Assembly (NCBI RefSeq): GCF_057098645.1
Contig: NZ_CM169472.1
DNA: 64,000 bases
Direction: 5' to 3' (one strand)
This document shows, piece by piece, positions 44,419-49,232 of this stretch. Every line of letters starts with the position of its first letter. The first letter of the stretch is position 1. Below the pieces are notes generated by a model. The model saw only the letters and a program-made list of their open reading frames with translations. It did not search any database and was not told the origin of the DNA. The position numbers and the translations under genes are program-made.

Positions 44419-45231
44419 TCAGCACTCAACAAACTGATGCTGTTCATTAAGACGATAGCGGACTCCGGCTCGAATATTGTTTTCACCTTCAATGGCGACG
44501 GCGAAACGAACTCTTTCGCCGTCATGATATGCCAGTGCGGCGCTTCCTCCTGGCCCGAGAATAATTGAGTCGACCACGCCCGTGCTCACTACCGTTGAAT
44601 TTTCACCGCTGGCAATGATGTGTACATTGTCGCCGCTGTTGGCAATTCTGGCGTTTGCGCCAAAGCTGGCGATTTGCACCAGGTCACCATTACTAGCGAC
44701 ATGACATCGTTCACCCAATGTACAAACGCGTACTCGCATTCCGGTATTCGCAATCCGACTGCTATCTCCAGCGCTGCTTATCCGCGAAGAATTGCCGGTT
44801 ACAGCAACCCGTGCGCGCTCACCGGAGCTGCCAATGTGACTGTTAAAGCCGACACTTCCAATCCGCACGCTATAACCCATACTGGCAATTTGTGCAGCAT
44901 ACCCAGCGGTTGCGATTCTGGCGTTATCCTCACAACAGCCGATGCGAGCATGATCGTCGCTGCGGGCAAACTGACTGCAAAATGGTATCTCTCCGGGGTC
45001 TGTGGCCAGTTTTTGCATAGAGGAAACTTCCTGATGCGCGAAGTTTTCATCCGCCAGCCATTTTTTCCACGCATACTCAACCAGACTCTCCGCCCAGTCC
45101 GTATATCCTTCCTCAATCAGTGCATGATGAATATCGGCATAACTACCGCCGCGTGGGAAATGGCGCAGGAACCAGCGATACATCACCGCTCCGATACGCC
45201 ATTCTCGCAGGTCTGCTCGTGTAATGATCAT
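44419..45231 (-). CDS. ydhT: YdhT, uncharacterised protein with a 9-residue periodic repeat
   Basis: 270 aa; about 15 consecutive xxRIxxxGx nonamer units; first gene read into the ydhUXWV block. Confidence 0.82.
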   Translation of the reverse strand: MIITRADLREWRIGAVMYRWFLRHFPRGGSYADIHHALIEEGYTDWAESLVEYAWKKWLADENFAHQEVSSMQKLATDPGEIPFCSQFARSDDHARIGCCEDNARIATAGYAAQIASMGYSVRIGSVGFNSHIGSSGERARVAVTGNSSRISSAGDSSRIANTGMRVRVCTLGERCHVASNGDLVQIASFGANARIANSGDNVHIIASGENSTVVSTGVVDSIILGPGGSAALAYHDGERVRFAVAIEGENNIRAGVRYRLNEQHQFVEC

Positions 45232-45234
45232 TCG

Positions 45235-46020
45235 TTAGTGCCGGTGATAGCCATCGACCATGCTTTTAAAGGTTTCGTGTGGCGTACGCCCCGTGGTGCA
45301 AAGATAAAGATGACCGAAGATAAAAAAGAGGCTTATAAATGCCAGAGCAAAATGCGCCTGCAATAACCAGTATCTTACGCCAGGAAACACATCTCCCACG
45401 GCTTGCGGATAGAGACACAGCAGCCCCGTCAATAGTAACAACGGCAGCAATCCATACATGACACCAACATAGGCAACCTGCTGTAAGGGATTAAATTTAG
45501 ACTGGGTTGTTGCCGGGAAAGGATGTTCTTCCCCCTGCATAATGCCAAACAAATAAAATCGCGTTTGTTTTGCCGCCCGCTCCAGCCAACCCTGACGACG
45601 AATGCGATAGTGGTGGCCATTACCCCCAACGGCATTGATCAGAACAAAGCCAAGCCAGCATGCCAGTAACAAAAATCCGCAAACTTCATGCACCGCAACC
45701 AGACTTTTAACCGCAGTTGCGCCCACCAGCGCAAAGTGATTTATCAGCCCACTTGCCAGCAACAATACAAAGAGTAACGCATTCGACCAGTGCCATAATC
45801 TGACCGCTTTGCTGTAAAGATAAATCCTCTCACCATGATCGGTGGCTGATTTCTTCACGCCACGAGCACGAAGCAAGGCGTGCTGCCCCAGCACCAACCA
45901 CATCCCAACCAGCAATACTCCGGCAATGATCAACCACACCGGCCAAAATTCGGGAGTGAACTGTGGCACATAGTTCGCTAACTGGCTCTGAAACTGTTCA
46001 GCATGTTGCGACGGGTTCAT
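45235..46020 (-). CDS. ydhU: Membrane cytochrome b-type subunit YdhU (PhsC/FdnI-like)
   Basis: 261 aa, polytopic with conserved His; overlaps ydhX by 4 nt. Confidence 0.85.
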   Translation of the reverse strand: MNPSQHAEQFQSQLANYVPQFTPEFWPVWLIIAGVLLVGMWLVLGQHALLRARGVKKSATDHGERIYLYSKAVRLWHWSNALLFVLLLASGLINHFALVGATAVKSLVAVHEVCGFLLLACWLGFVLINAVGGNGHHYRIRRQGWLERAAKQTRFYLFGIMQGEEHPFPATTQSKFNPLQQVAYVGVMYGLLPLLLLTGLLCLYPQAVGDVFPGVRYWLLQAHFALAFISLFFIFGHLYLCTTGRTPHETFKSMVDGYHRH

Positions 46021-46685
46021 ACATTTTCCTTTTTAATCAAATGTTGACCGAACCGGCGATACAGATGCGGTTTCCCGGCACCAGGTAGCTGATATTGATA
46101 GTATTTATTATCCTGCAACCACGCCTGAATTTCTGGGCTATCTTCGCGACCAAAGATCAATGCGTGTTCCGGGCAGGCGCTGACGCAAATGGGCGGAAAG
46201 CCTTTTGCCAGTCGGGACTCAGCGCAGAAATCACATTTATCTGCCACTTTAGTGACAGGGTTAAGGTAGCGAACCTGGTACGGACAAGCGCCAATGCAAT
46301 AACTGCAGCCGATGTACTGCGATTTTTCTACCCGCACGATCCCCTGCTCATCACGCCACGACGCCCCTGTCGGGCATACGTCGATGCACGGAGCATCTTC
46401 GCAGTGCTGACATGACTGGCGAAAAAAGTGATACTGCGTTTCGTTGTCGTTATCGGTGACTGGAATGTGTGCTATCGATAAACGGCTTCCCTGAGCGGGG
46501 ACGTGATTGGTTTTACGGCATGCGCGGGCGCAAATATTACAGCCATTGCACCGTGACTCGTCATGAATCATGGCATACCGAACTTCCTTTTCTTGCCTCG
46601 TGTTCGCTAACAGAGAAGACGCAGAACCAGTAAAAAAGATTACTGTTCCCATCCCCAGAACAAATTTGCGTCGAGTGAAGGACAT
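46017..46685 (-). CDS. ydhX: 4Fe-4S ferredoxin-like protein YdhX with Tat signal
   Basis: Start at MSFTRRKFVLG (twin-arginine motif); several CxxCxxCxxxCP clusters. Confidence 0.85.
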   Translation of the reverse strand: MSFTRRKFVLGMGTVIFFTGSASSLLANTRQEKEVRYAMIHDESRCNGCNICARACRKTNHVPAQGSRLSIAHIPVTDNDNETQYHFFRQSCQHCEDAPCIDVCPTGASWRDEQGIVRVEKSQYIGCSYCIGACPYQVRYLNPVTKVADKCDFCAESRLAKGFPPICVSACPEHALIFGREDSPEIQAWLQDNKYYQYQLPGAGKPHLYRRFGQHLIKKENV

Positions 46686-46748: not shown

Positions 46749-47396
46749 TCAGGGGTTCTGAAACTGCTCTACCTCGAACCATTCGCATAAGCCATAAGCC
46801 TTGCCATAGGTCATAAATCGCTCGCTAAACAAGTACAACACCGCCGTCGATGACTCCACCTGCCGTATATCGGCATATTCAGGTGCAACATCCATCGCGG
46901 CGATCGCGGCTTCAATCTGCGCTTCCTGGAAGTAATATGGCGCTTGCATCAGCATGGCGACTTTGTAAGGACGAGGATACGTCTGGCACTCAAAACGAAC
47001 GGCGTGTGCAATGGCGCGACAAATGTCCTGCTCCACAACTTGCAAAGACATCGCCGCGTAGTTTTCACTCATGGCCTGCGTTGAGTAATAGTAATCATCC
47101 TGGCTTCCCGTCATACACGCGATATCCGCGTAGTCTCCGTTCTGCTTGATGTTTTCCAGCAAAACTGACAGTTCCTCTTCTGCAACCGAATAGGGTGGCG
47201 AGAGAAACACGGTGCGCGCCACCAGCTGCCCAGCCGCAGAATGCTGGCGAATGAACTCTGCCAGGATTTCAGCCGGTTCTGGTTCCGTTACCGTATCAAC
47301 GGGGTGACGCATCCCCTGCAACCATTGCCGCTTCGCCTCGTCAACTTCGCTGACTTTCGCTAACGGCAATTCATCCCGATGGTTCATCTTACCCAT
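46749..47396 (-). CDS. ydhW: Uncharacterised protein YdhW
   Basis: 215-aa ORF in conserved position between ydhX and ydhV. Confidence 0.8.
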   Translation of the reverse strand: MGKMNHRDELPLAKVSEVDEAKRQWLQGMRHPVDTVTEPEPAEILAEFIRQHSAAGQLVARTVFLSPPYSVAEEELSVLLENIKQNGDYADIACMTGSQDDYYYSTQAMSENYAAMSLQVVEQDICRAIAHAVRFECQTYPRPYKVAMLMQAPYYFQEAQIEAAIAAMDVAPEYADIRQVESSTAVLYLFSERFMTYGKAYGLCEWFEVEQFQNP

Positions 47397-47399
47397 TCC

Positions 47400-49232
47400 T
47401 TACGCAGGCAGTAGATTGTGTGCTGCCAGATCGGCGGCAATATCTTCCAGCCCCAGACGCTGCAATGTTTCGCGGGTTGGGCAACCAAGCTGTGGGTCCC
47501 AGCCCATTTCTTTGTAGAACATCGTGAGCGAAGCATGCATATCGTCACGATCCATTTTGTCAGTACCTTCAGTAAAGACCGGGATCTGCGGATCCTTGTC
47601 GAATACCCAGGAACAGATAAGATCGTGTTCATTACGCATATCTTTGGTTTGCATCAGTTTCACCGTGTAGGCACGATGCAATGTAAAGATACGCTCTGCA
47701 GCTAAATCTAATTTTTCCTGAGTCATCTCTTCGCCAGTGATCGCTTTGAAGAATTTGGCTTCAAGCGCCAGATCGCCCCGATAATTACGGCTTTTCAGCG
47801 GCGAAACGGTCATTGGCCAGACCCAGTTGCACAGGGTGACGGCGTTATGCAAACAGACCCGCAACAGCGACCACTTAGCATATTTAATTTTTGCGTCATT
47901 GATCGGCGTGTAGTTTTTGGTTTCATCGTAAGCATCTTCAGAACCAAAAAGCTCTTTCGCCACTTCACGCTGCAGTTTCAATGGCAAACCCGAACCAATA
48001 AAATTGATATGGGTATGCGTCATGCAGTCACGGTTGAACATACAGTTAACAATGGAACCGACCTGCGCTGACGCTTCATTGGCATGGTGAAGCGGATAGC
48101 CAAACGGCGACCAGAGTTTATTTTTCGCGTAGCCCCAGTACTCTTCACCCAAATTCCAGCGTTCTGCGATGGCATATGAACCATCAGCCAGGTGGCTCAG
48201 CTCACCCACACGATGCGCCAGACGGTAGTAAAAATCTTTAATGAAGTTAACGTCACCCGCTTCCAGTTGATCCCAGCGAATTTCCGCATACTCTTCAGCT
48301 GGCAGAACACGCTTGAACACCCCTTTGCTGTAACAGTAGGTAAAGTCGCGATGCAGCTGCCCGTAGTTACACCATAGGCCGTAGTCATCGAACAAATTCA
48401 GACCAACAAGGTTACCAATCACACGACCATCGTCTTTATCTTCAAAATCTTTCGGCCCGTTCGGGAAGATGGTGGTATGGACAAAGTTTGCTACACAAGT
48501 GTTACCACCTGTGCTGGGCACGCCAAACTCTTTCACCCGAGGAATATTCATTTGGGTCATACAACGGATCGGGCAAGAGTGGCAGCCGCTCATTTTTACT
48601 GTGTATTTCTCTGCCGCCGGTCCTAAGTCAAAAACGGATTTATAGGTACGAAAGCCGACCGTATTCTGATTGCCTGGCGGAATTTCACCCGTTTCAATCG
48701 GACCACCTTCAGCCGCGCCCCAAAACAGCCCTTTACGTGCTGTCCAGCGTGACTTGGGATCTGAATACTCTGCCCACGATTGCGGCGTACTTGGCACGAC
48801 ATGGTTGTTATTCGCACCGATAAGTTCAGTCATCATGTAATCGTTGAGACGCTTCATCTCCTGACGATCGGCAATGTTGACCCCTTTCGTCCCTTCAACC
48901 GCAATCGCTTTCAGGTTTTTCGAACCCATTATTGCGCCAGTTCCCGCACCACCGCTGTGGTTACGGCTATTCAACATGCCAGAGAGAGGAACAAGGTTTT
49001 CCCCAGCCTGACCAATAGCCGCCACACAGGTTTCCGGACTGGTCAATCGACAAATTTCTTCCGTCGTTGCGCGCGTCCCTTTTCCCCATAAGAAATCTGC
49101 TTTTTCCAGGCTAACTTTGTCATCTTTAATCTTCAGCCATACCGGTGATTTCGCCTTCCCTTCGATAATAATGACGTCGTAGCCAGCGAATTTCATTTGC
49201 GCCGCAAAAAAGCCACCCATATGGGCATCGAC
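47400..49232 (-). pseudogene. ydhV: ydhV (aldehyde:ferredoxin oxidoreductase-family enzyme) truncated at its 5' end by IS1; about 610 of roughly 700 codons remain
   Basis: The reading frame runs without an in-frame start straight into the IS1 left end at 49233 (...VDAHMGGFF); the first Met at 49220 is internal in the full-length protein as I recall it. Confidence 0.8.

Follow-up and report, generated by a model that had tools for sequence, protein, structure and literature searches.

The five genes ydhT, ydhU, ydhX, ydhW and ydhV found at positions 44,419–49,232 of the analysed stretch (64,000 nucleotides in full, hereafter the window) are part of the known E. coli ydhYVWXUT operon, which falls in Class V of the AOR/WOR family. 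This single-copy operon has very probably been disabled in the recent past by an IS1 element together with a 984-bp deletion, leaving the enzyme dead, and the knockout is an ordinary strain-specific lesion of an already known system. The window is collinear with positions 1704420–1768545 of E. coli K-12 (approximately 98.65% identity). On its minus strand, ydhT, ydhU, ydhX and ydhW are intact and ydhV is present from codon 91, and none of the five genes has an internal stop. The gene positions and strand are those of a first-pass annotation made from the sequence alone, and its gene identities hold on the NCBIfam profile scores and the K-12 comparison: four of the five products (the YdhV remnant, YdhW, YdhU and YdhT) reached the curated cut-off of an NCBIfam equivalog. 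The tight or overlapping packing that it described was also verified; ydhU and ydhX overlap by 4 bp, two gaps are 3 bp long, and one gap (between ydhW and ydhX) is 63 bp long.

The region next to ydhV is occupied by a complete IS1 (49,233–50,000, plus strand, 768 bp), whose IRL adjoins ydhV. It starts with GGTGATGCTGCC and finishes with GGAGTCATTACC, has the inverted repeats, and carries insA (49,288–49,563) and insB (49,482–49,985) on the plus strand. Alignment over 768 bp with the IS1 annotated in NZ_CP024147 gave 99.87% identity. The element is the sole IS1 copy in the window. The 9-mers flanking it are ggcatcgac and tacgctgct, so that no 9-bp target-site duplication is present, and for this reason the event is regarded as an IS1-associated deletion. 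As compared with K-12, exactly 984 bp are absent (positions 9563–10546 of the K-12 locus, L002): 270 nt of ydhV (codons 1–90), a 20-nt spacer, the whole of ydhY (627 nt), and 68 nt of the upstream leader. The window resumes at position 10547 of the same locus, 68 nt upstream of the ydhY ATG. In the 64-kb window, neither ydhY nor the N-terminal coding sequence of ydhV was found elsewhere, and a tblastn search for ydhY gave only the paralogy to ydhX (approximately 28%). A 5′ ydhY stub beside IS1, as occurs in strain 14EC033, was considered and rejected: there is no YdhY frame, and BLAST places the end-point 68 nt before the ATG.

The earlier claim that ydhY and the start of ydhV are missing beside IS1 was confirmed by mapping against an intact sister, a draft E. 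coli contig (GCA_029357705.1, L006), as well as against K-12. The sister contains the 984 bp and is otherwise 100% identical over 8233 and 2468 flanking bases. Since no flanking substitution separates the two, the lesion is very young. The exact IS1 junctions occurred in none of the 5426 complete E. coli genomes. Judging from sequence identity, O145:H28 E. coli are near relatives of the strain: positions 24,000–32,000 are ~100% identical to O145:H28 genomes, and the ydh region is 99.93% identical to that of RM13516. (The O145 genomes stood low in one search because hits were ordered by how much of the query's IS1 part they covered.) An affinity with Shigella, considered because no exact junction was found in E. 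coli, was rejected on these identities and on the labelling of the sister proteins as E. coli.

The ydhV remnant (47,400–49,232, minus strand) comprises codons 91–700 and scored 1188 bits over positions 94–703 of the 703-position NCBIfam profile; it differs from K-12 by 29 nucleotides and one amino acid. Its upstream frame ends at a stop inside IS1, its first usable start codon is M95 at 49,220, and the sequence before M95 contains no Shine-Dalgarno motif. In the intact sister protein AFOR_N spans residues 7–205; because residues 1–90 are deleted, approximately 42% of this domain is missing, and the remnant is not a complete WorL (AFOR_N plus AFOR_C). It keeps Cys336 and C307/C310/C314, the CxxCxxxC motif for a [4Fe-4S] cluster. 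Cys336 is a metal ligand in the BamB-like active site of YdhV (PMC12096430), which places YdhV nearer to BamB of class II benzoyl-CoA reductase than to the aldehyde-oxidising AORs and so sharpens the earlier assignment to the AOR family. Metal analysis, which had been proposed as a check, is already published: bis-Mo-MPT was found in YdhV by Reschke et al. (2019), as cited in PMC9103625 and PMC13328260. The first-pass statement that substrate and physiological role are not established agrees with the literature, where no substrate is known for YdhV (PMC9103625), a Class V WOR that had no assigned activity as of 2026 (PMC13328260). The 606-aa remnant protein also turned up on one Logan contig, which was set aside as another allele, the full locus there carrying a 1-bp deletion in a T-run.

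The ydhX gene (46,017–46,685, minus strand) encodes 222 aa from the K-12 start, and its ORF extends to 46,736. The product, a Tat-signal 4Fe-4S ferredoxin in the first-pass annotation, is a four-cluster ferredoxin of the PsrB/NrfC type with a Tat signal (TRRKFVLG): its N-terminus, MSFTRRKFVLG..., matches a signal peptide that PMC7549933 includes among predicted Tat substrates, and the PsrB chain 2VPW_B was its top match in the PDB (E = 7.6e-33). YdhX fell below every NCBIfam equivalog cut-off, the best model being of the NrfC type (244.7 bits against a cut-off of 377.6). Codon 124 (46,314–46,316, minus strand) is TAC (Tyr) for TGC (Cys) and replaces the Cys that opens the third CxxCxxCxxxCP motif (QYIGCSYCIGACP), so that Cys groups I, II and IV are complete and group III is not. 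The position aligns to Cys in both PsrB (2VPW_B) and ArrB (6CZ7_B). C124Y was found in none of the 5426 complete E. coli genomes, 5408 of which have the Cys allele, while it is present on 39 draft contigs with an intact operon. It is a sublineage allele, older than the IS1 event, that removes a conserved Fe-S cysteine ligand. Decay after silencing was rejected as its origin, since the draft sisters with an intact operon share the allele.

The other three genes on the minus strand are intact. The ydhU gene (45,235–46,020, 261 aa) encodes a PhsC-type membrane cytochrome b subunit, in agreement with the earlier identification as a membrane cytochrome b: YdhU scored 456 bits against a cut-off of 204 on NCBIfam NF011582, and the precomputed Pfam domain of an identical sister gene is Ni_hydr_CYTB. 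The ydhW product (46,749–47,396, 215 aa) is a tandem winged-helix-like accessory protein with 394 bits on its NCBIfam equivalog. Genes of the YdhW family travel with YdhV-like AOR, FdhD and Tat genes. YdhT (44,419–45,231, 270 aa; 490 bits on its equivalog) has a helical N-terminal domain and, after it, a beta-solenoid whose period is 9 residues; it has no signal peptide. Neither YdhT nor YdhW gave a significant match to Pfam.

The promoter-proximal end had been described as lost, which is correct for ydhY and the ydhV start and incorrect for the FNR-dependent promoter: the predicted ydhY promoter survives at approximately 50,098–50,147. The FNR box (50,134–50,147, minus strand) is perfect (TTGATcattATCAA). 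The operon is listed as having an FNR class II promoter with FNR centred at −42.5 (FNR regulon table, PMC3688515), and its regulators are FNR, NarL and NarP (Partridge et al. 2008, as cited in PMC3688515). From the box and this value, which together define the promoter geometry used here, transcription would start near 50,098, and a leader of ~98 nt (50,001–50,098, minus strand) would remain between the start and the deletion end-point beyond IS1. The box is intact, yet 768 bp of IS1 separate it from the first remaining gene. Expression from IS1 read-out, which had been proposed, found no support in the sequence: no minus-strand sigma-70-like site was detected across 44,300–49,300 or 48,900–49,330. 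At the IS1 end there is no consensus outward promoter, and the sole candidate hybrid promoter is TTGGCA-17 nt-CATATG with a poor −10. The scan of the 63-bp ydhW–ydhX gap used the strict sigma-70 consensus only. The remnant genes are probably silent, although ydhW–ydhT could still be expressed to some extent, either from a non-consensus internal promoter or by transcription that starts at the FNR promoter and reads through IS1.

Of the 5426 complete E. coli genomes, 5395 (>99%) have the operon region intact and in one copy, and the search for a second copy in them gave nothing beyond split copies. Three other genomes carry independent simple IS1 insertions with 9-bp duplications, oriented as in the window and 3–90 bp from its junction; IS1 also occurs in ydhY or the leader region of other E. 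coli, and all of the examined copies in ydhV/ydhY share one orientation. When two 240-bp segments were compared among complete genomes, the junction segment was disrupted in 18 of 5413 genomes and the control segment in 4 of 5421. As a sign of an IS1 hotspot near the ydhV 5′ end, this excess is genuine though small, and widespread loss is not supported. In another member of the sublineage (L003), ydhV has a frameshift.

By homology, FNR would turn the intact operon on in the absence of oxygen. YdhV with its bis-Mo-MPT and [4Fe-4S] cluster, the polyferredoxin YdhY and the Tat-signal protein YdhX would then dock, on the periplasmic face, on the PhsC-like cytochrome b YdhU, and the docked complex may wire a redox reaction, probably of a non-aldehyde substrate, to the quinone pool; YdhW and YdhT would be cytoplasmic accessory proteins. 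IS1 is polar in both orientations and promotes adjacent deletions. In the window strain, IS1 was most likely inserted at its recurrent target in the 5′ part of ydhV, after which an IS1-promoted adjacent deletion would have proceeded from its right end. Transcripts from the surviving FNR promoter would run through 768 bp of untranslated antisense IS1 before ydhV′WXUT. The outcome would be no YdhY and a YdhV lacking both ~42% of its N-terminal domain and a ribosome-binding site. With the IS1 barrier added, the enzyme would be dead and the four downstream genes orphaned and probably weakly expressed.

The same product could have arisen by homologous recombination between an IS1 copy in the 5′ part of ydhV and a second, separately inserted copy in the ydhY leader, with the same functional outcome. 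Other E. coli do carry IS1 at both kinds of site in one orientation, and a shared orientation is what deletion by recombination requires. Nevertheless, this route needs two rare insertions in one lineage, and a sister contig with a single insertion was found in none of the 24 contigs read; we consider it the less probable route by a fair distance, although the end products of the two are identical and the sequence therefore cannot tell them apart. An assembly artefact, in which two IS1 copies flanking the 984 bp, or none, were collapsed by the assembler, is highly improbable. IS elements are classic collapse sites, and the absence of the exact junctions from the complete genomes is what such an artefact would give, but the two junctions coincide to the base with the canonical IS1 ends, and with two real copies ydhV would be interrupted at codon 90 anyway.

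Another reading is that the remnant still works: ydhW, ydhX, ydhU and ydhT would be expressed by IS1 read-through or an internal promoter and would supply another enzyme with a quinol-linked ferredoxin/cytochrome b module, or a YdhV starting at M95 would be active. The open frames of the four downstream genes (without stops or frameshifts), the intact FNR promoter and transcription start upstream of IS1, and the retained Cys336 and Fe-S motif of YdhV all speak for it. The intactness of the genes, however, is expected in either case, since so young a lesion leaves no time for decay. Against it stand the missing part of AFOR_N, the lack of a Shine-Dalgarno sequence before M95 and of promoter-like sites on the coding strand, the substitution at a cluster ligand of YdhX, and the absence of YdhY, which is otherwise found in every Class V WOR (PMC13328260). 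A working remnant is very unlikely. Most likely, the operon is disabled and its remnant cannot form an active enzyme.

The lesion alone matters little: the operon is annotated, the knockout is strain-specific, and more than 99% of E. coli are intact. Nonetheless, no bis-Mo-MPT enzyme other than that of this operon is known from E. coli, and the naturally arisen null allele, together with an intact sister of identical sequence, would make a clean pair for anaerobic phenotype and metabolite screens. YdhV had been over-expressed apart from the other operon genes (PMC13328260), which means that the accessory factors were not co-expressed with it, and the link of YdhW with AOR, FdhD and Tat genes offers a possible reason for the inactivity of purified YdhV. 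It is also conceivable, although we think it doubtful, that loss of the Ydh complex is selected for, beyond mere tolerance, in some E. coli niches. Two observations would fit such selection. One is that, in the O145:H28-related sublineage, YdhX C124Y arose first (39 contigs) and was followed by separate lesions, the IS1 deletion of the window and the ydhV frameshift. Another is that at least four independent IS1 insertions, all in one orientation, fall within 95 bp of each other in the 5′ part of ydhV across the species. If selected loss were true, the YdhV substrate could be sought in a naturally isogenic pair, the window strain and its intact, 100%-identical sister.

Among known systems, the closest is the K-12 operon (b1674–b1669), which shares with the window the locus, the synteny (ydhS, ydhT-U-X-W-V ... 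fumD/ydhZ, pykF), ~98.5% nucleotide identity and the same FNR box; the window differs in lacking ydhY, ydhV codons 1–90 and 68 nt of the leader, in carrying IS1 instead, and in YdhX C124Y. The IS1 insertions in 14EC033, 98208, SWYHX138 and PRO_A-1496 have the same orientation, three of them within 95 bp of the left junction, but they keep both gene halves and a 9-bp duplication, whereas in the window 984 bp are gone and there is no duplication. The Class V WORs (WOR clade 41) are defined by WorL and WorS (PMC13328260). YdhV corresponds to WorL, and the membrane-linked, Tat-oriented cytochrome b and ferredoxin architecture is recognisable in ydhX and ydhU; the WorS polyferredoxin, YdhY, lies wholly inside the deletion. 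With no WorS and with a WorL truncated at its N-terminus, the locus is a remnant rather than a functional Class V member. Finally, the quinol-linked periplasmic reductases PsrABC, PhsABC and NrfCD resemble the ydh system in that YdhX is similar to PsrB/NrfC and YdhU fits the PhsC-named NCBIfam model. From these two similarities, electrons would pass from quinol through the membrane subunit and the four-cluster ferredoxin to the catalytic subunit. The ydh system differs from these reductases in its catalytic subunit, which is of the AOR/BamB family (bis-MPT) and not of the bis-MGD DMSO-reductase family, and in having an extra polyferredoxin (YdhY) and the accessory proteins YdhW and YdhT.

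The ydh region of the window is a known operon carrying an ordinary, very recent IS1 knockout. Five closely packed reading frames occupy 44419–49232 on the minus strand: ydhT (44419–45231), ydhU (45235–46020), ydhX (46017–46685, as counted from the K-12 start), ydhW (46749–47396), and a remnant of ydhV (47400–49232). None of the five contains an internal stop, and the gene block reported by the first-pass annotation was confirmed. Its interpretation, an anaerobic oxidoreductase module that had lost ydhY and the ydhV start, was essentially right, with corrections needed on four points: the promoter, IS1 read-out, the YdhV metal, and the active site. 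The gene names are those of the K-12 annotation; over its full 64 kb, the window aligns collinearly to E. coli K-12 1704420–1768545 at about 98.65% identity. Four of the genes, the ydhV remnant among them, reached the curated cut-off of their NCBIfam equivalog; YdhX fell below every such cut-off, its top match being NrfC-like. It was also found that rsxC (4155–4771) contains an internal 96-bp tandem repeat region, apparently with one extra 96-bp unit relative to K-12, as judged from the offset between two long BLAST alignments.

The only IS1 copy within the 64-kb window (768 bp, 49233–50000) has the canonical ends GGTGATGCTGCC... and ...GGAGTCATTACC, and is 99.87% identical to the IS1 annotated in strain 14EC033. 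Its insA and insB lie on the plus strand, and thus the IS1 genes are transcribed away from ydhV. In the BLAST alignment with the K-12 reference locus (L002), the window skips from 9562 to 10547. The 984 absent bases correspond to ydhV codons 1–90, the 20-nt spacer, the whole 627-nt ydhY, and the 68 nt preceding its ATG. The 9-mers flanking IS1 (ggcatcgac and tacgctgct) show no target duplication, which indicates an IS1-associated deletion rather than a simple insertion. Upstream of V91, the minus-strand ydhV frame runs into a TAA within IS1 at a distance of five codons; the earliest start codon of the remnant, M95 (49220), lacks a preceding Shine-Dalgarno-like sequence. The remnant covers only positions 94–703 of the 703-position NCBIfam YdhV model. 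Since AFOR_N spans residues 7–205 in the intact protein, roughly 42% of this domain is missing; both the CxxCxxxC cluster motif and Cys336, the metal ligand, are kept. Separately, a Logan contig of the same lineage (L003, ERR6099787) lacks one base in a T-run of ydhV (TTTT to TTT) at about 2965–2970, which lies within a few codons of the end of the window's deletion and splits the gene into products of 88 aa and 606 aa. Either ydhV was inactivated independently in that case, or the sequencing or assembly is at fault.

IS1 has inserted repeatedly in the 5′ part of ydhV. In three other complete genomes, ydhV carries simple IS1 insertions, each with a 9-bp duplication, at distances of 3–12, 27–35, and 73–81 bp from the window junction. 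These copies have the same orientation as the window's and are only 96.7–99.2% identical to it, and they therefore represent independent events. Counting the window's, four independent copies, all in one orientation, lie within 95 bp (about 49150–49245 in window coordinates; L009, 1570–1590; L010, 1616–1632; L011, 1653–1670). More copies occur in ydhY and the leader, among them the IS1 in ydhY of 14EC033 (L001, 9000–9010). Of 5413 genomes, 18 carry a disruption in a 240-bp interval around the junction; for a control interval inside ydhV, the figure is 4 of 5421. Based on this clustering, IS1 probably first inserted at the left junction, and the deletion then ran outward from its right end. Homologous recombination between two copies of IS1 would leave an identical structure.

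The age of the lesion can be judged from draft E. coli contigs with a complete operon, which share the window's YdhX in an exact-protein look-up. One of them (GCA_029357705.1) contains the 984 bp missing from the window and otherwise matches it at 100.000% identity on both sides of IS1 (8233 bp on the left, 2468 bp on the right); the deletion is therefore specific to this strain and very young. Both junctions were absent from all 5426 complete RefSeq E. coli genomes, and the region is intact in at least 99.4% of such genomes. Over 24000–32000, the window and O145:H28 STEC genomes share about 100% identity; in the ydh region, 6 substitutions over 8233 bp separate the window from O145:H28 RM13516. 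Four of the six are non-synonymous (ydhS V194M and G413S, ydhT V124I, and ydhX C124Y), too few to interpret; the ydhS and ydhT changes lie at 43382 and 44039, and at 44862, respectively. Neither ydhV nor ydhW contains any of the six, and here too the numbers are too small to interpret.

In YdhX, Tyr at codon 124 (46314–46316) replaces the first Cys of the third CxxCxxCxxxCP motif, a position that aligns to Cys in PsrB and ArrB. A 55-mer centered on the SNP was found for the Tyr allele in none of the 5426 complete E. coli genomes, and for the Cys allele in 5408 of them; the Tyr form is recorded on about 39 draft contigs versus at least 1000 for the Cys form. On those Tyr-form contigs that were read, the operon is intact. 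Thus, C124Y is a sublineage allele older than the IS1 event, and decay following IS1 is ruled out as its origin. The Ydh complex may already have been impaired before IS1 arrived, through this change at a conserved [4Fe-4S] ligand.

The first-pass annotation regarded the promoter-proximal end as missing, but the promoter is still present. In K-12, a perfect FNR box lies 201–214 nt upstream of the ydhY ATG (L002 10679–10692), and the window retains it as TTGATcattATCAA at 50134–50147. The ydhYVWXUT operon is FNR-activated from a site at −42.5 (PMC3688515), which places the transcription start near 50098, with a leader of ~98 nt ahead of IS1. The FNR-driven transcript must now traverse IS1, antisense and untranslated. 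As a rule, IS1 elements exert strong polarity whichever way they are oriented. Consensus scans of the minus strand detected no sigma-70-like site at the junction or across 44300–49300, and the top hybrid candidate (TTGGCA in IRL, a 17-nt spacer, and CATATG) has a poor −10; the suggested IS1 read-out is thus without sequence support. The expected polarity of IS1 on this transcript, together with the empty sigma-70 scans, makes it likely, on sequence grounds, that ydhV′WXUT is silent.

The YdhW family is broad (518 clusters at E ≤ 1e-3). Three distant homologues (26–31% identity) were sampled on metagenomic contigs: L015 has the order YdhV-like AOR, YdhW-like, FdhD, TatA, TatC; L014 carries a YdhW-like gene with FdhD and two TatA genes; and L013 carries YdhW-like, YdhY-like, and YdhV-like genes. 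The neighbors at these three loci are accordingly FdhD-NarQ, TatA, TatC, a YdhV-like AOR, and a YdhY-like ferredoxin. With a low sample size (n = 3 loci), these neighborhoods suggest a dedicated accessory role for YdhW in the maturation or export of periplasmic AOR-family enzymes.

The literature agrees that the ydh module is known, yet unsolved. What the present case still offers is the YdhW lead and a naturally occurring isogenic pair, one null and one intact, for an enzyme whose substrate is still sought. YdhX is PsrB/NrfC-like and carries a Tat signal, and YdhU matches a PhsC-type cytochrome b model; from these homologies, quinol would donate electrons to YdhU, and they would then travel via YdhX and YdhY to YdhV at the periplasmic face. 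A role as an anaerobic reductase would agree with activation by FNR. The metal analysis of YdhV proposed earlier has been published: YdhV binds a redox-active bis-Mo-MPT cofactor with Mo preferred over W, and its substrate was not found, which may reflect the absence of the [4Fe-4S] cluster from the purified protein (PMC9103625). In the 2026 classification, YdhV and YdhY are the WorL and WorS of the membrane-associated, Tat-oriented Class V WORs (PMC13328260); the window is without exactly these two class-defining subunits. The fourth correction concerns the active site, which is BamB-like: YdhV shares a Cys metal ligand with BamB of class II benzoyl-CoA reductase, and the second-shell residues of aldehyde-oxidizing AORs are missing from it (PMC12096430).
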